DNA of 14,336 nucleotides from a virus (Duplodnaviria > Heunggongvirae > Uroviricota > Caudoviricetes): positions 1-14,336 of the IMG/VR virus record IMGVR_UViG_2537561825_000009; one strand, given 5' to 3'. Below the pieces are notes generated by a model. It was given only the letters and a program-made list of their open reading frames with translations, was not told the origin of the DNA and did not search any database. Both the position numbers and the translations under genes were made by a program. This document shows positions 1 through 14,336 of this stretch, one piece after another (position 1 is the stretch's first letter; each line of letters begins with the position of its first letter).

Positions 1-1
1 G

Positions 2-781
2 ATTCAGGACGCCCTGAAATCCTGTGGCTTACCGGTGGGTGCCGTGCAGGCGATTGATAATCCTGACCGTGCGCTGGTCAGTGAAATGCTGCGTATGGAT
101 AAATACATCGACATGCTGATCCCGCGTGGTGGCGCTGGTTTGCATAAACTGTGCCGCGAACAGTCGACGATCCCGGTGATCACAGGTGGTATAGGCGTAT
201 GCCATATTTATGTTGATGAAAGTGTAGAGATTGCTGAAGCATTAAAAGTGATCGTCAACGCGAAAACTCAGCGTCCGAGCACATGTAATACGGTAGAAAC
301 GTTGCTGGTGAATAAAAACATCGCCGATAGCTTCCTGCCCGCATTAAGCAAACAAATGGAGGAAAGCGGCGTGGCATTACACGCAGATGCAGCTGCGCTG
401 GCGCAGTTGCAGACAGGCCCCGCGAAGGTGGTGGCTGTTAAAGCGGAAGAGTATGACGATGAGTTTCTGTCATTAGATTTGAACGTCAAAATCGTCAGTG
501 ATCTTGACGATGCCATCGCCCATATTCGTGAACACGGCACACAACACTCCGATGCGATCCTGACCCGCGATATGCGCAACGCCCAGCGTTTTGTTAACGA
601 AGTGGATTCGTCCGCTGTTTACGTTAACGCCTCTACGCGTTTTACCGACGGCGGCCAGTTTGGACTGGGTGCGGAAGTGGCGGTAAGCACACAAAAACTC
701 CACGCGCGTGGCCCAATGGGGCTGGAAGCACTGACCACTTACAAGTGGATCGGTATTGGTGATTACACCATTCGTGCGTAA
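2..781 (+). CDS. proA: gamma-glutamyl phosphate reductase, C-terminal part (5' end lies upstream of the window)
   Basis: The frame is open from the window start to a TAA at 779-781. The translation ends ...[23 protein letters not shown], which I recognise as the enterobacterial ProA C-terminus. thrW follows immediately, as in the E. coli proA-thrW arrangement. Confidence 0.9.
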
Positions 782-895
782 ATAAAACCGGGTGATGCAA
801 AAGTAGCCATTTGATTCACAAGGCCATTGACGCATCGCCCGGTTAGTTTTAACCTTGTCCACCGTGATTCACGTTCGTGAACATGTCCTTTCAGG

Positions 896-971
896 GCCGA
901 TATAGCTCAGTTGGTAGAGCAGCGCATTCGTAATGCGAAGGTCGTAGGTTCGACTCCTATTATCGGCACCA
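896..971 (+). tRNA. thrW: tRNA-Thr (anticodon CGU)
   Basis: 76-nt sequence GCCGATATAGCTCAGTTGGTAGAGCAGCGCATTCGTAATGCGAAGGTCGTAGGTTCGACTCCTATTATCGGCACCA. The acceptor stem GCCGATA/TATCGGC pairs, the D-arm is GCTC...GAGC, the T-arm is GGTTCGACTCC, the anticodon loop carries CGT, and the 3' end is CCA. Confidence 0.93.
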
Positions 972-985
972 TTAAAATCAATAAG
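926..985. other. putative prophage attachment site (attL) overlapping the 3' half of thrW; exact core not determinable from one junction
   Basis: The integrase stop codon (986-988, minus strand) lies 14 bp past the tRNA CCA end. P22-type integrases recombine within the 3' end of thrW (established knowledge). The attR copy is not in the window, so the core length is inferred. Confidence 0.3.
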
Positions 986-2149
986 TTACACATCATTAGT
1001 ACCTTCCTTATTTTTTGACTGGGACAAATTTGGGACCGGTGGGTTCAGGATCGAGTCTATTTGCCGTGCGTGTTCGGTAAGGTGATTAGGTGCAAGGTGA
1101 GCATATCGACGAACCATTTCGATAGACTCCCAGCCTCCCATTTCCTGTAACACTGACAACGGGACTCCGGCTTGAACCAGCCAACTTGCCCAGGTGTGTC
1201 TCAAGTCGTGAAATCTGAAATCATCAATACCAGCCCGTCTCAGCGCCGCTTTCCAGGCTGTGTTTGCGTCATACCGCATCTTCCTTACTGTTGGCGCTTT
1301 CGTTCCGTCTGGTTTGGTACAGCTTTCCTTGTACACAAATACCCAACGGTGATGATTCCCGATTTGTTTTTTCAATACGCGACATGCAGTATCATTCAGC
1401 GCAACGCCAATTGCGCGGTTTGATTTACTCTCTTCCGGGTTTATCCATGCCACCCGGCGCTGCATATCTATTTGTTGCCATTCAAGGTTGATGATGTTCG
1501 AGCGTCTTAAGCCTGTTGCCAGTGCAAATTCAACAACAGACTTTAATGGCTCCGGACATTCATCAATCAGCCTTTGTGCTTCATGGGGCTTCAGCCAGCG
1601 GATCCGTTTATTCTTTGGTTGAGGCACTTTAATAATTGGTGCCTTATCCAGCATTTTCCATTCACGCTCTGCGGCTCTTAGTAGGGCCTTTATAAATGAA
1701 AGATGCGTAGCCTTCGTTGCAACGGACGCTGGTTTTGGCGTGTATTCTGGAACAGGTTTCCCTTTTTTTCTGCATGCTTCTGCCCTGAGTTTCCAGTTTT
1801 CCTCATGACGCCGGTTCGTCATTTTCTGCATTGCTGAATAAATTTTTGATTCAGTAATGTCTCTTAGTTGCATTCCTGCGAAATGTTGAAGCCAGAATCC
1901 GATCCGGCTTTTGTCATCGTCCAGTGATTTTTTATGTGCTTTCTCTTCAAGCCACCTGACACACGCTTCCTCGAACGTTATATCAGGTATTTCACCAAGT
2001 TTGCTGACCCGCCATGCTTCAGCCTTTAGCTTGTCATGGAGTTCTGTCGCCTGCCTTTTGTCCTTTGTTCCAAGAGACTGTTTAAATCTTTTACCGTTCG
2101 GCAATGTGAAACTGGCGTACCATATTTCACCTCTGCGGAAGAGTGACAT
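986..2149 (-). CDS. int: tyrosine site-specific integrase, P22 Int-like (387 aa)
   Basis: N-terminus [41 protein letters not shown] and C-terminal catalytic region ...[42 protein letters not shown] (R..HxxR..Y signature) match the P22 integrase as I recall it. An SD (AGAGGAAAG) precedes the ATG, and the gene sits next to the tRNA. Confidence 0.95.
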
Positions 2150-2376
2150 TTTCTTTCCTCTGTTATGCCATCACCCGCGCTCACCTGGACAGTATGCAGC
2201 GGAGACTGAAGAGCCGCAATGCAGGCTTGTCGTGTTGTGAGGTAAGGAGATTTATTCTTAGTGGGATCTTTGCGTGTTGCCTGAAGACGCCCTGTGCGTA
2301 TCCAGTTAATGGCAGTCGGTCTGGATATCTTGAGAAAATGACAGGCCTCATCGAGTGTGAGGCTGTATGGCTCCAT
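2026..2376 (-). CDS. xis: excisionase, P22 Xis-like (116 aa), 3' end overlapping int
   Basis: Internal Met of ORF 2026..2460 begins [36 protein letters not shown], a helix-turn-helix excisionase-like N-terminus. The resulting length of 116 aa matches P22 Xis. Its ATG overlaps the TAA of the upstream ORF (TAATG at 2374-2378 on the minus strand). Confidence 0.75.
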
Positions 2377-2681
2377 TATTTCACCTCTTGCTGTGACATT
2401 GTTGAAAAATGGATACCAGCTCGTTGCTGCCAGACGATCCAACCGAGAGTCATATCCCATGCCATGTATTCGTTATTGCCGTTTTTTGCTCTCCGACGAT
2501 CTACTAAGTCACCGAAACGCTTTTCCATGAATAATTCATAAGCTTCGCGTTCATCTGGTTCTACTTCCAGAGATAGGAGTGCGATTTCATAAGCACGGCG
2601 CTCAATATCGTCTCGCACGTCAAGGCTGCTGATACGCTCTTTAATTTCTTTAATCAGTTCTTTGTCGGTAAAAGTGGTCAT
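2376..2681 (-). CDS. yfdT: hypothetical prophage early protein (101 aa), YfdT-like by size and position
   Basis: Acidic, helical-looking ORF (MTTFTDKELIKEIKERISSLDVRDDIERRAYEIALL...) translationally coupled to both neighbours. Its length and place in the operon fit the yfdPQRST pattern as I recall it. No motif recognised. Confidence 0.5.
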   Translation of the reverse strand: MTTFTDKELIKEIKERISSLDVRDDIERRAYEIALLSLEVEPDEREAYELFMEKRFGDLVDRRRAKNGNNEYMAWDMTLGWIVWQQRAGIHFSTMSQQEVK

Positions 2682-3043
2682 TATGCTCCAGCCTCCGGTG
2701 CTTTTGGCATTACTGCCCAGTGAGTGATATTGACGTTTTCAAGGTCCCCGACCTGAAATGTCCACTGCCATTCTCCGGTTTCTTTTTGTCCCCAGGTGTA
2801 CCAGAGAGAACGCCAGCCAATTAGCCAGCCTTCTCCGTTAGCATCGAATAACAAAACACTTTCATTTGCTGGTGGCAGTTCAGTTGACACTGGTATTACT
2901 TTGTTTTCCTGTGCTGCACATTTAGCTTCAAGCGCATCGAATTTACGCACCAGGTATTCAGCATCTGTTTCATTTACTTTCAGATCTCGCGGTACACATC
3001 TCCCACGAAGAAACCCTTCCATTTCGAAAACATTCATGCGCAT
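2681..3043 (-). CDS. yfdS: DUF551-like prophage protein (120 aa), YfdS-like
   Basis: Trp-rich C-terminal half (...GWLIGWRSLWYTWGQKETGEWQWTF...NITHWAVMPKAPEAG) resembles the DUF551 signature (...THWMPLPEPP). The ORF overlaps its upstream and downstream neighbours. Confidence 0.6.
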   Translation of the reverse strand: MRMNVFEMEGFLRGRCVPRDLKVNETDAEYLVRKFDALEAKCAAQENKVIPVSTELPPANESVLLFDANGEGWLIGWRSLWYTWGQKETGEWQWTFQVGDLENVNITHWAVMPKAPEAGA

Positions 3044-3570
3044 TTGCGTAACTCCGATAACTCGTTAAAGCGTTCCATAAACATCCCGTAGGCATGGCCC
3101 GGTGCCAGTGGAATCACGTTGAACATCTCTGTTGCCGGGATACCTTCCAGTACAGGCCAGAAAGAGCCATCATCAAGCCCGAGATCGCGGCGTTCGGTTG
3201 CCAGCATGATGAGATCGGCATATTTCACGGGCGTACTCATAACTGGGGGTAACCCGTATTTCTCACGGATTACGGCGTCTATTTTTTCTTCCATTTGTTT
3301 ATAGTCAGGAAGAAGGCGTTTCAGTGGTGCGGGAATGTCCTGGCAATACGCTTCTGTTGCATCATGCATTAACGCTTCAAAAGCAAATTCCTGCGGCACC
3401 AGCTGGCTGCAAAGAACCGCATGTTGGGCGACGCTGTAGAAGTGCGAAAGATGACCGGCAAAGCGACAGATATTTGAAAGGGAAACCGCGATATCGTTAA
3501 TATCGATGTCGTCTTTATTTATCCTGTCATAATAAAAATGCTTCCCGGAAAAAGTTTTAATAAATGACAT
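3034..3570 (-). CDS. yfdR: HD-domain phosphohydrolase / 5'-deoxynucleotidase-like (178 aa), YfdR-like
   Basis: His...HD metal-binding signature (FAGHLSHFYSVAQHAVL ... ALMHDATEAY). Start chosen at the ATG at 3570, which is preceded by GTGGAGAACAAA (an SD), rather than the GTG at 3597. The 178-aa length equals YfdR. Confidence 0.75.
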   Translation of the reverse strand: MSFIKTFSGKHFYYDRINKDDIDINDIAVSLSNICRFAGHLSHFYSVAQHAVLCSQLVPQEFAFEALMHDATEAYCQDIPAPLKRLLPDYKQMEEKIDAVIREKYGLPPVMSTPVKYADLIMLATERRDLGLDDGSFWPVLEGIPATEMFNVIPLAPGHAYGMFMERFNELSELRKCA

Positions 3571-3697
3571 TTTGTTCTCCACGTATATGCGCTGCACCGC
3601 GCTGAATTCTGGTAAAAAGAATCCCTCACCATCCGGCGATTATTGAGTAAATTACGTTTCCATAAATGCCCCCGCAGGGGCATTTGCAGTAATGAAA

Positions 3698-4522
3698 TCA
3701 GGCGGTGAAAGTACCAATAAAGGTTTCTACTTTGCTGTCCTTGAATTTCTCAACAAGCAGCTCACGAAATTCGTTAGCCATTTCTTCCTGCACCGCCTCC
3801 AGCTGAATAATGCGCAGAACCAGTACAGGACGATCGCCAGTGATAATACTGAGGCGTAATTTAAACGGACGTTCTTTCAGACCTTCAAACGGAACGCATT
3901 TAAATTCAAATGCCACTGGCATAATGTCTTTGGTCTTCGCTTCGACAGACTCCATCAGGGAGCGTTTGCCGCTGAAGTCATTATCTTCAAAATCAGCGGT
4001 CTGGTTTGCTTCAATCGTGATTTTACGGACAGCCGCAGCCGCTTTTGTTGCCTGAATAGCGTCACCATTAGCATCAAAGCCCACAAGATAGTCGGCCCAG
4101 TCTTCAATCCATTCTGCTAGTGACTTCTGGGAGTTACGCTCGCCGTTAACAGACAACAGAGCAGAGAACGGTGCTGTCTTTTTCAGTTTGAGTGTGGCGG
4201 TGTTATCTGCGTGACCTGGTTCATCAATAGTACCTAGGTTAAGCACACTGACGGCACGCATATTATCAGCATCGATAAAGCAGCGGGTGCCTTCATCTGC
4301 AAGATCTTTAGAATAACGGGTAAAATCATCGATGCTGGCAGTGGAAAGCGCACCACGGAAACGGAAGCGATTTAAATTAAATTTTTCCAGATCATGAATG
4401 CGGAAATTCTCAGGCAATGCCACAGCATCGGCACCAATCTTACTGATAATTTCATTAACACCCTGAGCAGAAATAAGGGCATGGATTTGATTAATTGCGG
4501 TTGCGTCTAAGTTCTGAGACAT
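3698..4522 (-). CDS. yfdQ: DUF2303-family prophage protein (274 aa), YfdQ-like
   Basis: Clean 274-aa ORF with an SD (GTGAGGA) 8 nt before the ATG. Size and neighbourhood (between the yfdP-like and HD genes) match YfdQ. Family assignment is from memory, not alignment. Confidence 0.7.
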
Positions 4523-4587
4523 AATAAGTCCTCACTATATAAAGATATTCAGTGATGAGATAAATAATCAGTTAATTAAAAACGATA

Positions 4588-4950
4588 TTAACGACCTGCT
4601 GCGCGGAGTTTTCCGTCAGGTTCACCGGCAAGAGTCAGCAACTGTCCCTGGTCTTCCTGCAGAATAGTCAGGCGACCACCGCGATTGACATACATCGGCG
4701 TTTCGGTGGTGTCTTCTTCGGAAATTTTCCCGCGGTTAGTCGGGCGAACATATGAGAGTTTGTGTTTGATTTTCACTCGGTTCTCATCAAACGGTTCGAT
4801 TTCTAGGTTGAGCGAGACCTTACCTTTGGTTTTCGTGTTCATCACACCGGAAGCGACTTCACTGAGAACTGCGCCGATTTTGGTTTCAAATACGCCGCCG
4901 TCCAGCTCCCCGATAAATGCCTGCACATCAGTACTGCGTTCGCTAGCCAT
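4588..4950 (-). CDS. yfdP: hypothetical prophage early protein (120 aa), YfdP-like; first gene of the leftward operon
   Basis: ATG at 4950 is preceded by AGGAGCAGCAAA (SD AGGAG, roughly 7 nt spacer). The longer 226-aa upstream extension in the ORF track runs through the GC-rich hairpin region and lacks a better start. Confidence 0.6.
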   Translation of the reverse strand: MASERSTDVQAFIGELDGGVFETKIGAVLSEVASGVMNTKTKGKVSLNLEIEPFDENRVKIKHKLSYVRPTNRGKISEEDTTETPMYVNRGGRLTILQEDQGQLLTLAGEPDGKLRAAGR

Positions 4951-4998
4951 TTTGCTGCTCCTCATCATATCGACCCTGCAAGGTCGGTTAGTTTCTCC

Positions 4999-5087
4999 AC
5001 AAAACAGAGAAGAACACCTGCGGTGACTGCCGCCCGGATGGATTGGGTTATGAGCCCGTCGTCCGGTGATGCTCTTCTCTGTTTTGT
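4999..5087. repeat. long perfect inverted repeat (15-bp arms ACAAAACAGAGAAGA / TCTTCTCTGTTTTGT, 59-nt spacer) in the GC-rich leader of the leftward operon
   Basis: Arms at 4999-5013 and 5073-5087 are exact reverse complements. The spacer contains further short stems (GCGG..CCGC, CCGG..CCGG). Confidence 0.8.
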
Positions 5088-5096
5088 AAAAAGGAC

Positions 5097-5131
5097 GGTA
5101 CCAGCCGGAAGCAAGGGTACAAGCTGGTACC
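5097..5131. promoter_or_regulatory. operator-like inverted repeat GGTACCAGC-N17-GCTGGTACC with an internal GGTACAAG half-site (candidate OL)
   Basis: Shares the GGTACAAG / CTTGTACC half-site with the palindrome in the cI-cro intergenic region. It lies upstream of the first leftward early gene. Confidence 0.35.
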
Positions 5132-5419
5132 GCCAAGACTACACACAGCATAAAGTTGTGGTGCCGGGTGCCTCCCGGTGCCTGGCGAAGGTTGCACACC
5201 AGGCGGGTGGGTATCCACAGAAGGTCGACTGTCAGCCTCAACCTTAACCCGCGTGCGCTGAGCCGCATTCACCACAACGCTAAGGATTCTCTCTGGTTGA
5301 AAATACTTAGCTGTTATGTGCCTGCTTTTAGCCACATCAGGCGAGGTGGACCTAGTTATTCCCCAACAACAAGGATTCGGTTAATCTGGATATCCCCAAC
5401 AACAATAAGAGTATTCAAT

Positions 5420-5935
5420 GTGATCGCTGAATTAACGGCAGCAATGACGGCTATTCGTGAAATCGCCCAGATTGCAAAACTAATGAACGAGGCAAAAACT
5501 CAAGCTGAAGTAAATGCGGCTATTGGTGAGCTGAACTCAAAGCTTGCGTCTATTCAGCGCGAATGCGTGTCTCTCGTTGAACTGCTGGGCTCTTATCAAG
5601 AAATAAATGCTTCTCTCAAAGCTAAAATTGCAGAATTCGAAAACTTTGAGGCTCAGACGGAAGGCTATATCCTTAACCAACTTGAGTCGGGTACTTTTGT
5701 ATACTCGAAGGAGGTAATCGTGAACGGTGACAGCATAACCATGCATCTTTGCCCAAAATGTTTTGGACAAAAGATAGTATCGATACTTCAACCATTCCCG
5801 GTTAGCGAAGATGAGCTTTTTCATAAAAGCAGGTGCCTCCACTGTGAAAATAAGTTTCTGATGAATAAAAATCCGGATTACGTATCGCCTCCATCCATTG
5901 AGGAGTTGGCCAGAAAACTTAACGGCAATCTGTAG
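5420..5935 (+). CDS. hypothetical coiled-coil / C4 zinc-ribbon protein (about 171 aa from the GTG at 5420, or 163 aa from the ATG at 5444); immunity-region moron
   Basis: N-terminal heptad-like segment (AIREIAQIAKLMNEAKTQAEVNAAIGELNSKLASIQRE...) and C-terminal CPKCFGQ...CLHCENKF (CxxC-N29-CxxC). It is on the strand opposite to both flanking operons and has its own intrinsic terminator. The start codon is uncertain because the SD is weak. Confidence 0.6.
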   Translation: MIAELTAAMTAIREIAQIAKLMNEAKTQAEVNAAIGELNSKLASIQRECVSLVELLGSYQEINASLKAKIAEFENFEAQTEGYILNQLESGTFVYSKEVIVNGDSITMHLCPKCFGQKIVSILQPFPVSEDELFHKSRCLHCENKFLMNKNPDYVSPPSIEELARKLNGNL

Positions 5936-5974
5936 ATTGCTACTGTTGTGGATATCCAGATTGTTAAAGAGCGA

Positions 5975-5998
5975 AGCGTCCTATAGGGCGCTTTTTTG
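5975..5998 (+). terminator. rho-independent terminator of the moron gene
   Basis: Stem AGCGTCC / GGGCGCT (7 bp, one G-U pair) with a TATA loop, followed by TTTTTT, 40 bp after the stop codon. The reverse strand has no T-tract. Confidence 0.7.
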
Positions 5999-6077
5999 TT
6001 GCTAACGAATCATCCTGGACTTCATATGCTCCAGGGGGCTACTTCGTGGGCGTCCTGCCTGTTTGTTGTTTCTCTTG

Positions 6078-6114
6078 GGTACATTATGTATCTCAAAGGT
6101 ACATTGTCAAGTAT
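6078..6114. promoter_or_regulatory. pair of operator-like GGTACAT sites (GGTACATTATGTATC and GGTACATTGTCAAGTAT) just beyond the cI terminator
   Basis: Same GGTACAT core as the site overlapping the cro SD and start codon (6903-6916). Confidence 0.3.
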
Positions 6115-6136
6115 AAAAAAACCTGCCGAAGCAGGT
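6114..6136 (-). terminator. rho-independent terminator of the cI transcript
   Basis: Hairpin ACCTGC-cgaa-GCAGGT (6121-6136) followed on the minus strand by a 7-nt U-tract (A-run 6114-6120 on plus), 14 bp after the cI stop. Confidence 0.65.
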
Positions 6137-6149
6137 TCATAAACATTGA

Positions 6150-6824
6150 TTAGGCTTTGATTTTGTATCTTCTTGGTTTTCCTGAGAAAATCACAGTTCC
6201 AATTATAGAGCAATTACCGTTGATCTTAATGTAAGGCTCAGGCCAGTTTGGGTTTAACGCTTTGAGATAACGCTGTGTCCCATCTTCTATCAACCTTTTG
6301 AAGGTGGTTTCACCTGTATCGTGCATCAATGCAATAACGTCGTCACCGTGGCAGGCAGGTACTTCAGGATCGACAAAAATCATGTCTCCCGGGCGGTACT
6401 CATCAATCATTGAATCACCTATCACCCGCAAGATATAAGTCATTTCCCCACAGGGTACAGGGCAGGGATACGTTTCTGCTGTGCTCAAATCAACCTCAGA
6501 ATATCCAACTTCTTTCCATGCTCCGGCCTGTACCCATGATATGACAGGGACTAATGTGATTTGTTTATTAGTGATTGAAACATCAGGTTTTTTTGTGATG
6601 TTCGTTGTCTGGTGTTCTTGATCGAGCCATCCGACAGGCAGGTCGAAACATTTTTCGATGTGTCGTGCCATGCTGTCACCGATATTTTTAGTAGCACCAT
6701 CTCCCATAAACCTGCTGGTCTGGGTTGGCTCGCGATCAATCATAGTGGCAAAGGAAGAATTCCCGCCAACACCATCTCTCAGTTTTCTGGCGTTAGACCG
6801 CCGGATGTCATGGATTGTTTTCAT
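6150..6824 (-). CDS. CI-type prophage repressor with C-terminal LexA-like S24 peptidase domain (224 aa)
   Basis: N-terminal HTH-like region, long linker, then an S24 autopeptidase core with GDSM (Ser nucleophile) and a downstream TFKRL lysine. Divergent from the cro-like gene across an operator-bearing intergenic region. Confidence 0.88.
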   Translation of the reverse strand: MKTIHDIRRSNARKLRDGVGGNSSFATMIDREPTQTSRFMGDGATKNIGDSMARHIEKCFDLPVGWLDQEHQTTNITKKPDVSITNKQITLVPVISWVQAGAWKEVGYSEVDLSTAETYPCPVPCGEMTYILRVIGDSMIDEYRPGDMIFVDPEVPACHGDDVIALMHDTGETTFKRLIEDGTQRYLKALNPNWPEPYIKINGNCSIIGTVIFSGKPRRYKIKA

Positions 6825-6839
6825 AACGAAATTAAAACC

Positions 6840-6860
6840 CTTGTACCGTTAAGGTACAAG
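6840..6860. promoter_or_regulatory. operator palindrome CTTGTACC-GTTAA-GGTACAAG in the cI/cro divergent promoter region (OR)
   Basis: Perfect 8-bp inverted arms located 16 bp upstream of the cI ATG and immediately upstream of the candidate pR -35 element. Confidence 0.6.
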
Positions 6861-6864
6861 TATC

Positions 6865-6892
6865 TTGAAGGTTCATTTCAATCATGTAATAT
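6865..6892 (+). promoter_or_regulatory. candidate pR promoter for the cro-like gene (-35 TTGAAG, 16-bp spacer, -10 TAATAT)
   Basis: Hexamers and spacing read from the sequence. The predicted transcript start is about 20 nt before the cro ATG and includes the GGAGG SD. Confidence 0.4.
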
Positions 6893-6914
6893 GTACGCCG
6901 GAGGTACATATTGT

Positions 6915-7115
6915 ATGAAAGCGTATTGGGACTCTTTAACCAAAGAACAGCAGGGCGAGTTGGCCGGAAAAGTTGGCTCAACACCTGGCTACTTACGGCT
7001 GGGTTTCAATGGCTATAAAAAAGCCAGTTTTGTGCTGGCTAAAAAACTTGAGCAATGCACGTCAGGTGCAATTACGAAATCTGACTTAAGACCGGATATC
7101 TATCCGAAAGATTAG
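6915..7115 (+). CDS. Cro-like HTH regulator, YdaS family (66 aa)
   Basis: ATG at 6915 is preceded by GGAGG with a 10-nt spacer. The protein ...LAKKLEQCTSGAITKSDLRPDIYPKD shares the C-terminal LRPDI motif I recall from YdaS-type Cro proteins. The 167-aa track ORF overlapping cI is a spurious extension. Confidence 0.8.
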   Translation: MKAYWDSLTKEQQGELAGKVGSTPGYLRLGFNGYKKASFVLAKKLEQCTSGAITKSDLRPDIYPKD

Positions 7116-7146
7116 CAGAACACTTTCAATTTTTAACCACAGAACG

Positions 7147-7716
7147 ATGAGGCTAATCGTGGGTAAGCATCACTGGAAAGTAGAAAAACAGCCTGAGTGG
7201 TACGTGAAAGCTGTCAGAAAAACTATCGCGGCGTTGCCGGGTGGTTACGCTGAAGCGGCTGACTGGCTCGATGTAACAGAAAACGCTTTATTCAACCGCC
7301 TTCGTGCAGATGGCGATCAGATTTTCCCGCTGGGATGGGCAATGGTTTTACAGCGTGCTGGTGGCACTCACTTCATTGCTGATGCTGTGGCGCAGTCTGC
7401 AAATGGCGTCTTTGTGTCTCTTCCTGACGTCGAAGATGTGGACAACGCCGATATTAACCAGCGTCTGCTGGAAGTCATTGAACAGATCGGCAGTTATTCA
7501 AAACAGATTCGTTCAGCAATCGAAGACGGTGTAGTGGAACCGCATGAGAAGACAGCAATTAACGACGAGCTGTATCTCTCAATTTCGAAGCTGCAGGAGC
7601 ATGCAGCACTTGTCTACAAAATTTTTTGCATTTCAGAAAGTAATGACGCCCGCGAGTGTGCAGCTCCGGGCGTCGTGGCGTCGATTGCTTCTGGTTGTGG
7701 AGAAACTAACGCATGA
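7147..7716 (+). CDS. CII-like / YdaT-like phage regulatory protein (189 aa; possible GTG start at 7159)
   Basis: Sits in the cII position directly after cro. Size and composition are consistent with the phage CII (CP76)/YdaT family. The GTG at 7159 has a closer GAGG SD than the ATG at 7147. Confidence 0.55.
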
Positions 7717-8051
7717 ACAGTTTAACAACACACTACCGTCGCTCGCAACTGATTGCGCTTCCTGTACCGGGTGGAAAAGCGAAGGTGGAATATTGCTATG
7801 CAGTGAATGTACCAGGTGACAGGGAAATTGTAACCCACAGCTTTGCAGAGTGGGCTGTGGGTGATTTCAACCGGCAGAAGGAGACAGTCCTTTGCGACAA
7901 GTTAACCGCTGGTTCAAAGATCACTACGGAGTGCCCGTCAGAGTCATTCGTTGGGAGCCGGAAACACAACGGGTTATCTACCTCCGCGAAGGTTATGAGC
8001 ATGAATGCTTCAGTCCGCTCGAACAGTTTCGTCGTAAATTCAGGGAAATAG
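7713..8051 (+). CDS. hypothetical protein (112 aa); possibly only the N-terminal half is genuine
   Basis: ATG overlaps the stop of the upstream gene (ATGA). The C-terminal third is Ser-rich and low-complexity, while another frame over the same DNA encodes a more protein-like sequence (see next feature). Confidence 0.4.
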
Positions 8052-8071
8052 AGGTCGGTCATGAGCACTAA
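7892..8071 (+). CDS. candidate small protein (59 aa, TTG start) translationally coupled to the replication gene
   Basis: Strong SD GAAGGAGA 8 nt before the TTG. Translation [59 protein letters not shown] looks like a folded domain. Its stop overlaps the start of the O-like gene by 11 nt. It falls just below the 60-aa ORF-track threshold. Confidence 0.35.
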
Positions 8072-9002
8072 ATTAACCGGCTATGTATGGGATGGTTGCG
8101 CTGCATCAGGCATGAAGTTATCCAGCGTGGCAATTATGGCCCGCCTGGCTGATTTCAGTAATGACGAAGGTGTGTGCTGGCCATCAATTGAAACCATTGC
8201 CCGTCAGATTGGCGCGGGGATGAGTACCGTCAGAACGGCTATCGCACGGCTGGAAGCAGAAGGCTGGTTAACGCGTAAGGCGCGTCGCCAGGGTAACCGC
8301 AATGCGTCGAATGTTTATCAGCTTAACGTTGCGAAGCTTCAGGCAGCGGCATTTTCTCAACTGTCAGATTCTGACCCGTCAAAATCTGACGCATCAAAAT
8401 CTGACCCGTCAAAATTTGATGCGTCGAAATCTGGCAAAAAAGCGGGTTTTCACCCGTCAGAATCTGGCGGGGATCCGTCAGTAAAATCAAAACATGATCC
8501 GTCAGATAAAAAACCTTCTCGTCCGGACGCTTCGCAACCGGACACGCAGACGGCTGAACAGGATTTTTTAACTCGCCATCCTGATGCGGTTGTATTCAGC
8601 CCTAAAAAGCGCCAGTGGGGGACGCAGGATGATTTGACCTGCGCACAGTGGCTCTGGAAAAAAATCATCGCCCTGTACGAGCAGGCTGCCGAATGTGACG
8701 GCGAGGGGGTTCGTCCCAAAGAACCGAACTGGACAGCCTGGGCAAACGAAATTCGCCTGATGTGTGTGCAGGATGGTCGTACTCACAAACAAATCTGCGA
8801 GATGTACAGCCGCGTCAGCCGCGATCCGTTCTGGTGCCGTAACGTGCTCAGCCCGTCGAAGCTGCGGGAAAAATGGGATGAGCTTTCCCTGCGCTTATCG
8901 CCGTCCGTAAGCACGTACACCGAAAAACGCGAAGACCCGTACTTCAAATCCAGTTACGACAACGTGGACTACAGCCAGATCCCGGCAGGATTCAGGGGGT
9001 GA
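8061..9002 (+). CDS. phage replication initiator, O-like (N-terminal winged-helix domain, repeat linker, C-terminal DnaT-like domain; 313 aa)
   Basis: N-terminus ...VAIMARLADFSNDEGVCWPSIETIARQIGAGMSTVRTAIARLEAEGWLTRK is a typical replication-initiator HTH. The central part is encoded by DNA iterons. The C-terminal Trp-rich region (...CAQWLWKKIIALYEQ...PNWTAWANEIRLM...) is typical of the DnaT-like domain. Confidence 0.8.
   Translation: MSTKLTGYVWDGCAASGMKLSSVAIMARLADFSNDEGVCWPSIETIARQIGAGMSTVRTAIARLEAEGWLTRKARRQGNRNASNVYQLNVAKLQAAAFSQLSDSDPSKSDASKSDPSKFDASKSGKKAGFHPSESGGDPSVKSKHDPSDKKPSRPDASQPDTQTAEQDFLTRHPDAVVFSPKKRQWGTQDDLTCAQWLWKKIIALYEQAAECDGEGVRPKEPNWTAWANEIRLMCVQDGRTHKQICEMYSRVSRDPFWCRNVLSPSKLREKWDELSLRLSPSVSTYTEKREDPYFKSSYDNVDYSQIPAGFRG
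8358..8515. repeat. origin-type iteron array inside the O-like gene (TCTGACCCGTCAAAA-like units)
   Basis: Four consecutive 15-bp units at 8370-8384, 8385-8399, 8400-8414 and 8415-8429, plus further degenerate CCGTCA-containing copies to about 8515. They encode the DPSKSDASKSDPSKFDASKS repeat in the protein. Confidence 0.7.
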
Positions 9003-9017
9003 TCATGAGTCTGTTAA

Positions 9018-9536
9018 ATGACGTTCAGAAATTCATTGAAGCCCAAAGATATTGTTGGTGTATGGACCGTATGTCACGGGCATATTGCACCGCCAGATAT
9101 TCCGGCAGGCTTCGTGGCTGTTTTCAACAGTGATGAGGCATCGTGGCATCTCGTTGAAGACCATCGAGGTAAAACGGTTTATGACGTGGCATCAGGGGAC
9201 GCGTTATTTATTTCTGAACTCGGTCCGTTACCGGAAAATGTTACTTGGTTGTCACCGGAAGGGGAATATCAGAAGTGGAACGGCACAGCCTGGGTGAAGG
9301 ATACGGAAGCAGAAAAACTGTTCCGGATCCGGGAGGCGGAAGAAACAAAAAACAGCCTGATGCAGGTAGCCAGTGAGCATATTGCGCCGCTTCAGGATGC
9401 TGCAGATCTGGAAATCGCAACGGAGGAAGAAACCTCGTTGCTTGAAGCCTGGAAGAAGTATCGGGTGTTGCTGAATCGTGTTGATACATCAACTGCACCT
9501 GATATTGAGTGGCCTGCAATCCCTGTTATGGAATAA
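9018..9536 (+). CDS. tail fibre assembly protein (Tfa) homologue, probably a 5'-truncated remnant (172 aa)
   Basis: From [35 protein letters not shown]... to ...[17 protein letters not shown] is the conserved Tfa body as I recall it. The first ~21 residues ([21 protein letters not shown]) are unrelated, there is no good SD, and no tail fibre gene lies upstream. Confidence 0.65.
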
Positions 9537-10089
9537 TCGTTCCTGTTGTAGCCACAGTCACGTCATATACAAGAACTTGCCGGCCTAAGAAGAGTTCGTG
9601 CTGATTTTGAATATAAAATCAGCATTACAACGCCCGAAATACCCAGGCTAAAAAATTTCTTAGGACATTATCAGCTGGCGATACATAGATGGACTGGATA
9701 CTAGACCGATAGAGGCGCTGTATGCGTCATCTTGTCGTGATGCTGGCGAAGTTGTGCGAACGAAGTATTAACTTTTGCAGCCTAGCTGATTCAATTGATG
9801 CAGCCACACTAACGGGGCGCTTTTTTCCATGTAATGGTTGTAGAAGATGTTACTGAGAGGGATTAAATGAAACAGCAAATACGTCATATGTTAGAGCATG
9901 TTGTGGTTGACTGTTGAACACACCTATCACAAATGTGCTTCTTTAGAAAGAGAATTTACATAAGCAAATTGCAACATGTTTTTTTTCTGAGTAAATAGTA
10001 TGATTAACAATGCTGACTACCATTTTCTTACATGGCGAACCTAATTAAGAATTAAACGCGAGTAGATTACCCGCTTTAGAGGAGGATTT

Positions 10090-11031
10090 ATGTCCGGTTA
10101 CTGTTTTTACTCTCAGGATGCATTAGCCTTAGCCCAGGCAGCTGGTGTTGATGTAATAATAAACGAGTATGCTGAGAAGAATAAAAAACAGACATATGTT
10201 CTTTGTCGTCCCCTGTCAAATGAGGATGTAAAGTATGATTATGACCAAGCGATAGCGGTATTTTCGGCTGGTATAAAACCTTTTTTTATGAATTTAGGAG
10301 ATGACGTCGAACTCTTTGAAGAGTATCAAGAGGATTTTCTAGAGGATGTATCATATTTAGCAGAGAAATTTAAGTATCGTAGTAAAATTGGAAGAAAAAA
10401 GACATGGCAAGATTTATTTGAAGTACTTTCTGTTGGTGATGCCGATTTCAGTAAGCTGGAGGTTGAAACTAAAGAAAGTAGAATAATTGATTTGCTAATC
10501 TCGCTTATTGTGGGAAGTATTAACGATACTTCAAGAATTAATCTTGAAGCAAGTAATTTATTAGATACAATAAAATCAAAGATTATTTTATTTGATACTG
10601 ATCAAACAAAATTCGTTTTCCAAAGTGGAATTGGAAAAAAGACTGTAATACAAGGCTTGGCTGGTTCGGGGAAAACAGAACTCCTTTTACATAAATTAAA
10701 AGAGGTTTATTTAAGGAACCCTGATGCTAAAATTGCATTTACTTGTTTTAATAAAATACTTGCATCTACAATGAGAACTAGGATACCAGAGTTTTTTGAT
10801 TTTATGCGAGTGGAAAAGCAAATTGAATGGGGTACGAAACTTTTTTGTTTTAACTCTTGGGGTTTGACTAAAGATCCCTTTTCTGGGATGTATAGATATA
10901 TATGTCATTATTACGAAATTCCATTCGGTGGTTTTGGCAACGGAGATTTCGATGCTCTTTGCAAAAAAGCCATTTTGGATATAAAAAAAGTGGGCGGTCT
11001 GATGAAAAAGCTCTCGATTATGTGTTTATAG
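10090..11031 (+). CDS. UvrD-like SF1 helicase, N-terminal segment: unknown ~185-aa domain plus Walker A and motif Ia; frame ends 42 nt after an A7 tract
   Basis: Strong SD AGAGGAGGA before the ATG. Walker A GLAGSGKT at residues 189-196 and Ia-like FTCFNKILAS. GC content is clearly lower than the flanking prophage. Confidence 0.75.
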   Translation: MSGYCFYSQDALALAQAAGVDVIINEYAEKNKKQTYVLCRPLSNEDVKYDYDQAIAVFSAGIKPFFMNLGDDVELFEEYQEDFLEDVSYLAEKFKYRSKIGRKKTWQDLFEVLSVGDADFSKLEVETKESRIIDLLISLIVGSINDTSRINLEASNLLDTIKSKIILFDTDQTKFVFQSGIGKKTVIQGLAGSGKTELLLHKLKEVYLRNPDAKIAFTCFNKILASTMRTRIPEFFDFMRVEKQIEWGTKLFCFNSWGLTKDPFSGMYRYICHYYEIPFGGFGNGDFDALCKKAILDIKKVGGLMKKLSIMCL

Positions 11032-12077
11032 ATGAAAGCCAAGATTTTCCACAAAGCTTCATTGAACTATGTGAAATGGTTACATCTAAAAAACTATATG
11101 TAGCGGGCGATGTATTTCAAAATATATTTATGCCGATTAATGATAACGTGAATCGAGCAGATATAGTTCTTAAAAAATGTTATCGCACAGATCCAAAGAA
11201 CTTAATGTTTTCTCATGCACTAGGAATGGGACTTTATGAGAAACCGGTGCTTCGGTGGTTGAAAGAGACTGAGTGGGATTCTTGTGGATATAAATATAAT
11301 AAGGTTGGGGATAGAGTACATTTATCTAGGGATCCGTTAAGACGCTTTGAAGATATTCCAAAAAATCATAAAAGTACGGCTATTCATTTACTAAAAGAAG
11401 TGGATAATGGTCCTGATAAAATAGTTGAAATTATTAAGGATATTCAGGCCCGCAATCCTACTTTAGAGCAAGGAGATATAGCAGTCATTTTCCTTGATGC
11501 TAGTGGTTATATTTATGATTATATTCAATCACTAAAATCAAAAGTCAAGTTGCAGCTTGGTTGGGACTCTAATATTTCACATGAGACAAAATCAAAACAA
11601 GATGGGAAGCTTTTTATTTCCAATATAAACAATGCAAAAGGGCTTGAGTTCCCATTTGTTATTTGTTTTGCTATGAAATTAGTAAAGAGAGCAAACTTTC
11701 GAAATGCTCTGTATACTATGATGGCTAGATCTTTTTTAGAAAGCCATTTAGTTTTAAATAATGATAATGAAAATCCGGCAATGCCTACTATTATTGAAGG
11801 TTTAGATTTTCTCAATAAAAATGATTATATGGATGTAAGACTTCCGTCGGATGAGGAAATAAACAATCAAAAGGATTATATTATTTTGGATGAGTCTACC
11901 TCTATTAATCAAATGGTTAGAAAATATTGTGAAGATAAAAAATCCACACCTCGCTTAATAGCAAAAGTTACTCACACTGTAGAAACTATAATAGCAGGTC
12001 TTGATGATGATGATGTCGATGATGACTATATAAATAGATTGATTGAAATAGAATATATAAGGAATAAAAAGTTATGA
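10902..12077 (+). CDS. UvrD-like SF1 helicase, C-terminal segment (motifs II-VI) in the alternate frame; the real join is at the A7 tract 10983-10989
   Basis: Motifs DYVFIDESQDF (II), LYVAGDVFQNIF (III), CYRTD (IV), ISNINNAKGLEFPFVI (V, UvrD_C-like) and ALYTMMARSF (VI), then an acidic tail DDDDVDDD. Adding one A to the A7 run fuses the two segments into a single 662-aa protein. Confidence 0.75.
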   Translation: MSLLRNSIRWFWQRRFRCSLQKSHFGYKKSGRSDEKALDYVFIDESQDFPQSFIELCEMVTSKKLYVAGDVFQNIFMPINDNVNRADIVLKKCYRTDPKNLMFSHALGMGLYEKPVLRWLKETEWDSCGYKYNKVGDRVHLSRDPLRRFEDIPKNHKSTAIHLLKEVDNGPDKIVEIIKDIQARNPTLEQGDIAVIFLDASGYIYDYIQSLKSKVKLQLGWDSNISHETKSKQDGKLFISNINNAKGLEFPFVICFAMKLVKRANFRNALYTMMARSFLESHLVLNNDNENPAMPTIIEGLDFLNKNDYMDVRLPSDEEINNQKDYIILDESTSINQMVRKYCEDKKSTPRLIAKVTHTVETIIAGLDDDDVDDDYINRLIEIEYIRNKKL

Positions 12078-12712
12078 GTTTTTATTTCTTTAATAATGTA
12101 CCTACAGTGTACCTTGAAAAGTTCTGCGCTGTAAGAGATGCATTTTCCAATCTGGAAAATCTTCTTATTGCTGCGGAAATTATAAATACATGTCATGACT
12201 GTTGGAATAAAGAAACAAATGATTTCGATTTGCTAATAAGTACTGGTACTCATAAGCGAATTCTGGTGAGGAAACCGGATGGTTTTTTTTCTATGAATTT
12301 ACCATTTCAAGTAATTGAGTATGAAAGCAATATCTGTTTTAACTATGATGCCTATGGGCTTCCTGTTAATGCAGAGTTTATTTCTCGATGCAGGAATGTA
12401 ATAAATACTTGCAGTAATGGCGCTTTTTCTCAGGAGGCAATTGCTCTTGAATTGTGTGATAACTTTGATCGAGATATTCAAAGTGCTATAAATTATGCTG
12501 ATGCAATTTGTTCATTGTTGTTAGTTGATCATGGGTATTTTAGGTTTGATGATGATCCTAAAAATGCGAAGGATAAAGTGCATCCAAGATATCACTTTGA
12601 TTTTTTCTTCAATAATTCTACTAATGTAAAGATAGGCTGTAATACTCGTTTGGATGAATCATTTTTTTTAGAACTATTTGATGTAAATAAAGACCGCCCC
12701 TATCTGGCTTGA
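12074..12712 (+). CDS. hypothetical cysteine-rich protein (212 aa), translationally coupled to the helicase
   Basis: ATG overlaps the helicase stop (ATGA at 12074-12077). Nine Cys residues including a CHDC pair. Same low GC as the helicase. No recognisable family. Confidence 0.7.
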   Translation: MSFYFFNNVPTVYLEKFCAVRDAFSNLENLLIAAEIINTCHDCWNKETNDFDLLISTGTHKRILVRKPDGFFSMNLPFQVIEYESNICFNYDAYGLPVNAEFISRCRNVINTCSNGAFSQEAIALELCDNFDRDIQSAINYADAICSLLLVDHGYFRFDDDPKNAKDKVHPRYHFDFFFNNSTNVKIGCNTRLDESFFLELFDVNKDRPYLA

Positions 12713-12714
12713 AT

Positions 12715-12740
12715 TATAAGCGCCCATCAGGGCGCTTATA
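12715..12740. other. very stable hairpin (11-bp perfect stem TATAAGCGCCC / GGGCGCTTATA, 4-nt loop) 3 bp after the 212-aa gene
   Basis: Read directly from the sequence. There is no U-tract on either strand, so it is not a canonical intrinsic terminator. Confidence 0.6.
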
Positions 12741-13162
12741 GGGTGAGATGAGTATTATAAAGAGTCTGTTTTGGGTAGTGTTTTTATAAATATTTACATA
12801 TATCATAACTTTTGCCAATGTAATATTTGAATTCTTCTATTACGTATTTAAGTATCGTTTGGCTTTTTTTCTTTGGCTATCCTGCACTCAATAAGCATAA
12901 AAATCCATTTACATTGTTTTTGCATATGACATGTTTTTAATTGTTCGAATGGATCGTGTTAGTACTATTTTATCTGGTAAAAAGCAGATGTAGATATTAG
13001 GAAGTTTTTTTTGAATGATAATGGAGCAATTAAGATTTTTTATTCTAACCATTCCCTAGAAATACTCTGCCTAAAAAATAGACATAATATGGCAACCATA
13101 ATAGGCCGGTTTTTGGTGGCATGAAAGGATTTTTAATCCTTGTGCCTGACACCTTATCATGA

Positions 13163-14031
13163 TTATGAAAGACCGTAGTATTTATTTAGCGCGGTGGTAG
13201 CGGCTTGAGTTGCTACAGCTATTCCTATACCCAAAATACCATGGGCTGCTTTACTTGCAATATTTGCCAGCCATTTACTAACAGATTGACCGTATTCATC
13301 ACGTCTGTTAGCTATCGGGCCATCTTCACCAATAGCAATTTCTAAATCGTTTACATCAGATTTAGGAAACCCCTGAGCTAAGAGATATTCTTTTAATGAT
13401 TCAATGTTGTTTTTTACGATATGGTTATTCACAGAAAATGAGTTTTCATTTCCGAAGTTTATAACAGTATTGTCTCCAAAAATTGAGTTATGAAACAATG
13501 AAGACGTGTCGATATTTTTAAGTTTTTCTGTCATGTTTTTCTCATCTGATATTTCAGAAACTTGATCAGAAAGTTCAAGTATAAAATCAAGTAGCCGTGA
13601 TCTGACCTGAGTTAAGATGGAAGTGAAGTTATGTAGCGCGATCTCTTTATAACAGCATGTTAACTCATAGCCTCTATCGATACCTTTGCAATATTTAACT
13701 AATGCATAATCTAAAGGAATTGGCTGCTGCAGGGTATGGCTATCACCAGCATTGGTTACTAGGTCTTCGATTTGACTGATTGAAAGTCTAACTTTACTGG
13801 TTGTAGCATCTTCATAGTCATCTTCACTGAGATAGCCAATCGGTAAAGGAAAAGCTCTATATAGGCGAATGCCATTGTTCAGATCTGCAAGAATTCTTGT
13901 GCCAACAATTCTATAATCGGGAAGGGAAACTGAATCAGAATAACCGTTTATCTCATGATTTACCCATGCAGCAAGCTCCTTTTTCCCGATAGAGAAAAGA
14001 AGGATCTTTGTTTTTATGAGAGCATCTGTTG
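13163..14031 (-). pseudogene. 3' fragment (at least 289 codons) of a gene for a protein with a C-terminal glycine-zipper TM helix; 5' end interrupted by the IS66-family element
   Basis: Minus-strand frame is open without any stop from the IS end (14031) to the TAA at 13163. In-frame ATG/GTG/TTG are absent for 165 codons upstream of the Met at 13534. C-terminus is ...WLANIASKAAHGILGIGIAVATQAATTALNKYYGLS. Confidence 0.6.
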
Positions 14032-14336
14032 GTAAGCGGCTCGTCAGAACCGTATTGATATTTACTGAGAGCTCAGATCAACTTTCCAGGGCAACAGATC
14101 GCGTACCCGGTTTGCCGGCCAGTCCTGGATATGTTCAATGACGTAGCGCAGCCACTTTTCTGGCTCCACATTGTTCAGACGGCATGTGCCGATCAGCGAG
14201 TACAACACCGCCGCATGTTCACCACCGCTGTCGGAACCCGCGAACATCCACTTTTTCCGGCCTACGGCCACTCCCCGTAAGGCGTTCTCTGCGATGTTGT
14301 TGTCGATTTCCACCCAGCCATTACTGCAGTACACGT
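14032..14336 (-). mobile_element. IS66-family insertion sequence, terminal ~300 bp (rest beyond window end)
   Basis: Terminus begins GTAAGCGGCTCGTC at 14032, the GTAAGCG end typical of IS66-family inverted repeats, 30 bp outside the transposase stop. Confidence 0.7.
14062..14336 (-). CDS. IS66-family transposase (TnpC), C-terminal part; 5' end beyond window
   Basis: ...VEIDNNIAENALRGVAVGRKKWMFAGSDSGGEHAAVLYSLIGTCRLNNVEPEKWLRYVIEHIQDWPANRVRDLLPWKV matches the conserved IS66 TnpC C-terminal region as I recall it. Confidence 0.85.
   Translation of the reverse strand, partial: VYCSNGWVEIDNNIAENALRGVAVGRKKWMFAGSDSGGEHAAVLYSLIGTCRLNNVEPEKWLRYVIEHIQDWPANRVRDLLPWKVDLSSQ

Follow-up and report, generated by a model that had tools for sequence, protein, structure and literature searches.

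A probable composite deletion scar in a thrW prophage of Escherichia coli and the recurrence of its breakpoint in the tail fibre assembly gene

The cryptic prophages DLP12 (with its aaaD/tfaD joint), e14 (ymfN, oweE/aaaE) and CPS-53/KpLE1 of Escherichia coli K-12 have kept their early and immunity regions together with cargo genes and have lost the genes for lysis and the virion by deletion. Here we describe a prophage remnant of the same outline in a stretch of 14,336 nucleotides (hereafter the window), positions 1 to 14,336 of the IMG/VR virus record IMGVR_UViG_2537561825_000009, in which an 'O-like' replication gene is followed almost directly by a tail fibre assembly gene (tfa) that lacks its 5' end. 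The likeness to the K-12 elements extends to particular genes and joints: DLP12 also carries a 5'-truncated tfa, joined there to a fragment of the terminase gene gpA, ymfN of e14 is annotated as a chimeric replication protein/terminase, and the early genes yfdN and yfdP-T and the O-like gene of CPS-53 are found in the window element too. In contrast to these three, which lie at argU, icd or argW, the element of the window lies at thrW, and its joint is composite, with a 36-bp piece of an endolysin gene between two breakpoints.

From cI to the O-like gene and up to position 9045, the window is 95-99.9% identical to the viable phages SfIV, SfII, SfV and PhiR49_1 as well as to the intact thrW prophage carried by E. 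coli 2013C-4991. Beyond that point these genomes continue into yfdN, a LexA-family regulator, RusA, KilA-N, Q, lysis, head and tail genes, whereas the window is without these 31.8 kb. An independently formed thrW remnant of the same prophage family is found in E. coli NCTC_13148 (L006, NZ_OZ510750.1, 10105-18881), where the replication protein ends in the same ...YSQIPAGFRG and codons 1-55 of yfdN are fused in frame to Tfa residues 45-194 at GATA/TTGCACC (a slash marks the break), the same tfa position as in the window. It differs in having a single joint with microhomology GATA and no rrrD insert, in the N-terminal part of its replication gene, and in its cargo, which is Avs2 (the defence gene avs2 is next downstream) instead of a helicase.

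We consider it highly probable (about 0.9) that positions 8999-9536 of the window are the composite scar of a 31.8-kb loss from a lambdoid thrW prophage with an early region of the SfIV/CPS-53 type and a late region of the lambda type, in keeping with what has been described of prophage decay and 'grounding' (PMC6379469, PMC3105296, PMC3945230). The scar itself is ordinary, being of the classical deletion-fusion kind of cryptic prophages, and illegitimate recombination is known to yield composite joints with templated inserts like the one of 36 bp here. The recurrence of the endpoint in tfa, on the other hand, we did not find described; together with a recurrent endpoint in the endolysin gene rrrD it is the part worth following.

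Anatomy of the scar

A megablast search with window positions 7000-11000 against 5,426 complete E. coli genomes found the whole arrangement in six of them, at 99.9% identity, while thousands match just to 9045; in all, similarity breaks off at 9045 in over 5,000 genomes and in 100 phage records. An intact relative is the thrW prophage of E. coli 2013C-4991 (NZ_CP027355.1), in which both flanks of the scar lie in one prophage, about 32 kb apart. Identity to it is 99.9% on the left (999-9045) and 99.98% on the right (9082-14031), reaching 100% for the tfa remnant from 9082. This reference prophage (2640000-2677000, L004) is itself slightly decayed, with an internal stop in rrrD and frameshifts in rzpD and in the gene for minor tail protein L. 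Ungapped three-register comparison of the window with the two sides of each joint fixed the joints and the lengths lost, and the features of the region are as follows.

8061-9002, plus strand: replication-type helix-turn-helix (HTH) protein of 313 amino acids, full length with its native C-terminus (Pfam HTH_36, E = 4e-11; weak DnaD_N and RP-C)
8999-9045, plus strand: 5' remnant of yfdN, 47 nucleotides, without a difference from the intact relative as far as 9045, after which the two are unrelated; YfdN has a Pfam PerC match
9044-9045, no strand: microhomology CA of joint 1, common to yfdN and rrrD; 6,888 bp lost
9046-9081, plus strand: internal fragment of rrrD (endolysin), 36 bp, rrrD nucleotides 128-163, encoding RrrD residues in frame with the tfa remnant
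9082-9084, no strand: microhomology ATA of joint 2, common to rrrD and tfa, on the recurrent tfa breakpoint GATA/TTGCACC; 24,943 bp lost
9082-9536, plus strand: 3' remnant of tfa, a pseudogene, nucleotides 131-585 of 585, Tfa residues 45-194 (Prokaryotic Genome Annotation Pipeline, PGAP, and alignment to intact tfa)
9018-9536, plus strand: chimeric open reading frame (ORF) of 172 amino acids, made of 9 codons of out-of-frame yfdN, 13 of RrrD and 150 of Tfa

A sequence-only reading of the window had proposed a deletion scar that joins the replication module to a 5'-truncated tfa, and had named as its test whether the adjacency of the two genes is ancestral. The intact homologues show that it is not, with 31,831 bp, or about 39 annotated genes of NZ_CP027355.1, between the two ends, so the deletion stands. 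Where that reading saw a single join, the comparison gives two, separated by the endolysin piece: positions 9044-9083 are 100% identical, in the same orientation, to rrrD of NZ_CP027355.1 (2667699-2667738) and of many other E. coli in a short-query blastn search. The lost region had also been thought to start with a helicase loader; in the intact relatives there is none, the next gene being yfdN, of the PerC family, whose GTG start overlaps the stop codon of the replication gene in NZ_CP027355.1. According to the annotation of the intact prophage, the first interval lost (6,888 bp) runs from most of yfdN through the Q antiterminator and the holin into the 5' part of rrrD, and the second (24,943 bp) takes the 3' part of rrrD, Rz, the terminase and all head and tail genes to codon 44 of tfa. 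The intact order after yfdN is LexA-family regulator, RusA, KilA-N, DUF968, Q, methyltransferase, holin, rrrD, rzpD, iss and terminase, followed by the head and tail genes, J, lom, a 3.2-kb tail-fibre gene, a tfa of 194 codons and the cargo (a UvrD-like helicase and others). Both marks of a cryptic prophage are thus found, an integrase at a tRNA attachment (att) site together with an immunity and replication module on the one hand, and on the other the absence, between 9045 and 9082, of the lysis, packaging and virion genes of a colinear intact relative.

The chimeric ORF begins with an ATG at 9018, 15 bp past the stop at 9002 and with no evident ribosome-binding site; the reading from yfdN's own start goes out of frame after joint 1 and stops at 9133. 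Residues 50-169 of the ORF match Pfam Caudo_TAP (PF02413, E = 2.9e-44). The native N-terminal domain of Tfa (residues 1-44, PF28596) and the native start are gone with tfa nucleotides 1-130, and fusion proteins of this Tfa type carry PF02413 only. PGAP describes the equivalent feature as 'tail fiber assembly protein, incomplete; missing N-terminus', a pseudogene, and the annotation of the 172-amino-acid product as a tail fiber assembly protein is here corrected to a three-part chimera and pseudogene. Both joints occur together in the same six complete genomes, and the exact ORF (P0299) is present on 119 contigs of a public collection.

The replication gene to the left of the scar is whole. Its end had been suspected of being chimeric, but it is identical to intact prophages and to PhiR49_1, SfIV, SfII and SfV through the stop and on to 9045, and scar-bearing and intact strains have one protein accession, WP_000104943.1, from which the window's product differs solely by G216V (G versus T at 8707); from 8708 through the stop the gene is identical to the intact relative. 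Homologues in phage records are annotated as DNA replication protein O, primosomal protein or replication protein. A Pfam search gave no match to Phage_rep_O, the family of lambda O-type initiators, and found HTH_36, a GntR-type HTH and weak DnaD_N/RP-C instead; 'O-like' is therefore a label of gene position and phage annotation, not of family.

How the scar may have arisen

The sequence-only reading had also pointed to an imperfect direct repeat around the join (9045-9082), both copies of which encode IPAGF. The repeat is present as reported, its two copies being:

8975-8993, plus strand: copy 1, CCAGATCCCGGCAGGATTC, native 3' end of the replication gene, encoding QIPAGF; identical in the intact prophage
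9093-9113, plus strand: copy 2, CCAGATATTCCGGCAGGCTTC, native tfa sequence, encoding PDIPAGF; identical in intact tfa

In register, the 15-mers ATCCCGGCAGGATTC and ATTCCGGCAGGCTTC agree at 13 of 15 positions, and CCAGAT is also common to both upstream, after an indel of 2 nucleotides; copy 1 is read as ...YSQIPAGFRG up to the stop codon and copy 2 likewise as IPAGF. The window holds 12 pairs with at least 13/15 identity at a spacing of 20-200 nucleotides, against 2.3 +/- 1.2 in Markov shuffles. To this surplus of short direct repeats the replication protein adds a low-complexity linker rich in Ser, Asp and Lys, with short repeats (DSDPSKSDASKSDPSKFDASKS) at window positions 8380-8470. The best local alignment between the 150 nucleotides on each side of the join scores 16, which was equalled by one in 1000 dinucleotide shuffles and by 8 of 379 (2%) real pairs of neighbouring segments of the window. 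The repeat is modestly above chance and unexceptional for real sequence.

Deletions that form between direct repeats leave one copy behind. What is found here is otherwise: the mapped breakpoints (9045/9046 and 9081/9082) lie outside both copies instead of inside them, no single hybrid copy is left, and both copies survive in the scar as they stand, unchanged and 31,949 bp apart, in the intact relative. The proposal that the repeat served as the microhomology or substrate of one deletion by recombination or slippage, leaving a chimeric end of the replication ORF, is drawn from its bracketing position, from the IPAGF in both copies and from a flank similarity somewhat above the shuffled expectation; with the native end of the replication gene and an rrrD fragment between the joints to account for as well, we give it next to no credence. 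The IPAGF repeat is best read as a chance resemblance of native tfa to the replication gene's own 3' end, with no part in the deletion. It is also very improbable that the adjacency is native, or that it is no product of decay but a functional gene order under selection, with a short Tfa made from the gene behind the replication gene. The rrrD piece is indeed in frame with tfa, the Caudo_TAP domain is whole, NCTC_13148 has its in-frame YfdN-Tfa fusion at the same tfa codon, and most recorded fusions are in frame; against this, the yfdN reading is out of frame and stops at 9133, the start at 9018 has no evident ribosome-binding site, PGAP calls the feature a pseudogene, what is fused to Tfa are random pieces of structural genes, a surplus of in-frame fusions is expected from ORF calling, and 32 kb separates the two genes in intact relatives.

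Known processes to compare with the joints are RecBCD-dependent alternative end joining, illegitimate recombination of the Ikeda type, and fork stalling and template switching/microhomology-mediated break-induced replication (FoSTeS/MMBIR). No insertion sequence (IS), att site or long repeat was found at the joints, which share CA and ATA and lack an IS end, an att core and a recombinase site. Because the joints have 2-3 bp in common and none of these elements, we infer that they were made by illegitimate, microhomology-mediated joining; as far as sequence alone can tell, they resemble the products of microhomology-mediated end joining or template switching in their short overlaps, in the absence of a recombinase site and in the short templated insert in the same orientation.

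Whether one event or two made the scar is less easily decided. We lean towards two successive deletions, of which the one joining rrrD to tfa would have come first and the one joining yfdN to rrrD second. This history is favoured by P0313 (UniRef, n = 24 E. coli), a protein of 205 amino acids that continues in frame from RrrD 1-55 into Tfa 45-194 and belongs to the sister cluster of the 172-amino-acid ORF: since it has the rrrD-tfa joint with the 5' part of rrrD intact, joint 2 can exist without joint 1. P0313 may be a relative of the intermediate or may represent an independent formation of the same joint. Three points weigh against two steps. The RrrD and Tfa alleles of P0313 differ from those of the window, so that it is maybe not the ancestor; an intermediate with a single deletion was not found in the 5,426 complete genomes, in IMG/VR or in the GTDB representative genomes; and it would be improbable for two independent deletions to have ends in rrrD separated by no more than 36 bp, save where that stretch is fragile. 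The same improbability speaks for a single complex event, which we regard as possible though not favoured, in which a 3' end came off yfdN during replication or break repair, used CA to prime on rrrD, copied some 36-41 nucleotides there and then moved on to tfa by way of ATA, either by serial template switching of the FoSTeS/MMBIR type or by capture of a filler fragment in end joining. The insert does come from DNA inside the lost interval, whose orientation and order it has kept, and has microhomology of 2-3 bp at both ends, it holds GATATTG, a heptamer also present at the tfa breakpoint, and none of the 5,426 genomes has just one of the two joints. Yet very few genomes have this type of prophage, so that missing intermediates are weak evidence, the rrrD-tfa joint stands alone in other E. 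coli (P0313), and the rrrD and tfa ends both recur in unrelated fusions, which makes an ordinary two-step history plausible. The outcome is a locked-in remnant with integrase, immunity region, replication gene and cargo kept and with all lysis, packaging and virion genes gone, and the scar is one more case of a temperate phage that became such a remnant while keeping its immunity and cargo genes.

A breakpoint that recurs in tfa

The tfa breakpoint of the window, GATA/TTGCACC, lies at tfa nucleotides 130-136 (window 9081-9087). A protein search with Tfa residues 45-194, in which the junctions of the best 120 hits from a public collection were aligned, gave 27 distinct junctions with a foreign N-terminus, 16 of which start at Tfa residue 44/45. 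Nine of the 16 have the partner genes RrrD, YfdN, ParB-like YnaK, Q, capsid E, gpZ, gpT, gpJ and collar-domain Stf, four are at different sites of the terminase gpA, and three have partners without Pfam identification, one of them (P0040) tail-fibre-like. If junctions were spread evenly over the approximately 47 codons in which they can be detected, the binomial probability of such a cluster would be about 1e-15, a figure to be read with the facts that ORF calling favours in-frame fusions and that junctions close to the N-terminus are concealed when proteins are clustered at 90% identity. A set of nine junctions compared as DNA all fit a partner sequence ending in (T/C)A and followed by TTGCACCGCCAGATATTCC, with 2-5 nucleotides of microhomology inside GATATT. 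The loci at the tfa breakpoint are L006, L048, L049, L050, L059, L077, L079, L080 and L083-L085.

The left-hand side of the gene breaks at the same place, in that, of about 19 N-terminal Tfa fragments that run into foreign sequence, five stop after residue 44/45, and the three that are sequenced end in ...ACCGATA. On these junctions the site is two-sided. A control search with RrrD found far fewer fusions, and three of its eight junctions (P0260, P0272, P0276) start at residue 55/56; this breakpoint, GGGCATA/CAGG in codons 54-56 (window 9078-9084), is the end of the window's insert. Since tfa 44/45 and rrrD 55/56 both recur, joint 2 joins two recurrent breakpoints. One breakpoint that recurs in many independent events is not what simple random microhomology joining predicts, and literature searches found no description of a tfa deletion hotspot or a recurrent tfa endpoint.

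Scans of IMG/VR, metagenomes and GTDB representatives with the DNA pattern added only a single new partner at this breakpoint and a single junction at another position of the gene. IMG/VR held the canonical alleles and the new partner (L059), the metagenomes the NCTC_13148 type and the junction at a different tfa position, and the GTDB representatives mostly lambda/E. coli contamination and an unrelated gene with the same 19-mer. As to the contamination, short low-coverage contigs with lambda-type tfa occur in assemblies labelled Vibrio, Pseudomonas, Enterococcus, Streptomyces and others (L086-L160) and are probably lambda or E. coli contaminants. The 19-mer TTGCACCGCCAGATATTCC also occurs, reverse-complemented, in an apparently unrelated conserved gene with similar flanks in taxonomically diverse assemblies. 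Four sequences (P0121, P0162, P0165 and the 3' end of L083, a Logan contig) run into the Nextera adaptor CTGTCTCTTATACACATCT, translated VSYTHL, and are artefacts that should not enter any count of junctions. In DLP12 of K-12 (tfaD, L075 4535-5098) gpA (...QRNTLI) joins tfa at the second GATATT, so that the Tfa part begins with PAGF, 15 nucleotides further in than the site described here. Other strains (L049) have the same gpA break joined 15 nucleotides earlier, before APPDIPAGF, and the joint of K-12 has the look of a secondary deletion, by slippage from one GATATT repeat to the other.

Several causes for the recurrence were considered and rejected. The idea of a Pin/Din invertase acting at a cryptic site came from the resolvase-family gene that adjoins tfa in Rac-type prophages. 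Crossover sites of the Din family were taken to be 26 bp long, with AAACC..GGTTT half-sites; the e14 pix arms AAACCTTGGTTTGGGAGAAGG and CCTTCTCCCAAACCAACGTTT are unlike anything around 9082, and neither the window nor NCTC_13148 has a pin gene there. A stable hairpin at the tfa breakpoint receives no support from DNA folding of 140 nucleotides (z = -0.2 for the plus and -1.1 for the minus strand, not significant); an imperfect palindrome, GCCAGATATTCCGGC, lies 6 nucleotides to the right of the breakpoint. Insertion of an IS with adjacent deletion does not fit either, as IS1/IS10 ends join tfa after codon 30 or 55, not at 44/45. A 'copycat' origin, in which the boundary of homology with an already truncated tfa such as tfaD of DLP12 is passed on, is unlikely as a general cause because each junction type is rare (gpA type in four genomes, NCTC_13148 type in one of 5,426, window type in six) and the K-12 tfaD boundary is 15 nucleotides further in.

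Two leads are left, both post hoc and among about five ideas tried. The octamer TCTGGCGG is the only one on the bottom strand of tfa and 60 nucleotides to either side with at least six of eight Chi matches. RecBCD cuts a few nucleotides (4-6) 3' of Chi. The tfa breakpoint lies 5 nucleotides 3' of TCTGGCGG, which has two mismatches to Chi, and better sites (7/8) exist elsewhere in the late region. The general mechanism of Chi is described in PMC12315714. As for DNA gyrase, 16 of 32 positions match, by a crude consensus count, the Topo-Seq consensus (as given in the supplement of PMC6379681) at the 4-mer CGAT, which is in the top 0.5% of prophage positions and is centred 1 nucleotide from the 4-nucleotide zone GATA common to left and right fragments. 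The rrrD breakpoint has no high gyrase-consensus score and does not fit. We tentatively suggest, as an idea that for now has somewhat less than even odds, that tfa nucleotides 130-136 form a sequence-specific, two-sided fragile site that sets the right-hand limit of decay across E. coli lambdoid prophages; its cause could be a site-preferring break or stall, with a strong cleavage site of gyrase (a type II topoisomerase) or a Chi-like RecBCD stop 5 nucleotides away as candidates. If this is true, prophage decay would be partly deterministic and possibly inducible by drugs, through quinolones. If tfa nucleotides 130-136, and less so rrrD codon 55/56, are real hotspots, large prophage deletions would be non-random, and these endpoints could serve as marks by which decay events that happened independently in E. 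coli lineages are dated and counted.

Remaining features of the window

The window starts with proA, followed by the tRNA gene thrW and then the prophage. The early-left genes yfdT/S/R/Q/P lie between the integrase and the repressor, and the repressor is followed by ymfT (cro-like, a YdaS-type Cro), ymfL, a DUF4222 gene and the 313-amino-acid HTH protein. The features retained on both sides of the scar are listed here.

896-971, plus strand: tRNA-Thr (CGT) gene thrW (ARAGORN), integration site and left boundary of the prophage; PGAP places a tRNA-Thr beside the integrase in an identical strain
986-2149, minus strand: prophage tyrosine integrase, an ORF of 387 amino acids; tyrosine-type recombinase/integrase WP_001132557.1 in relatives
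6150-6824, minus strand: cI-type repressor of the LexA/S24 family, annotated ymfK (Pfam Peptidase_S24, E = 1.5e-26), retained
7147-7716, plus strand: cII-like regulator, annotated ymfL (Pfam Phage_CP76, E = 1.3e-13), retained
10090-12077, plus strand: UvrD-like helicase, right-end cargo retained to the right of the scar, split by a 1-bp deletion at 10983

The deletion at 10983 was seen against both a scar strain (L002) and a strain with the intact prophage (L003), the two relatives aligned there, and it turns the 662-amino-acid helicase into two ORFs (10090-11031 and 10902-12077). The helicase has weak matches only, to the PADLOC models 'Helicase' and 'NERD+UvrD', and its downstream partner of 212 amino acids (12074-12712) has no family match. 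At the right edge, a minus-strand ORF of 90 amino acids (14062-14334) runs to the end of the window; relatives annotate the gene of an IS66-family (ISCro1) transposase there, an element inserted into the cargo region, which lies rightward of the prophage remnant. Compared base by base over 14.3 kb with the scar strain 504239 (L002), the window shows four substitutions (1039, 1591, 7003 and 8707) and the indel at 10983, and the other five scar-bearing complete genomes have the same 99.9% identity over 7000-11000. Since four substitutions and an indel separate it from 504239, the window represents a further, closely related strain.

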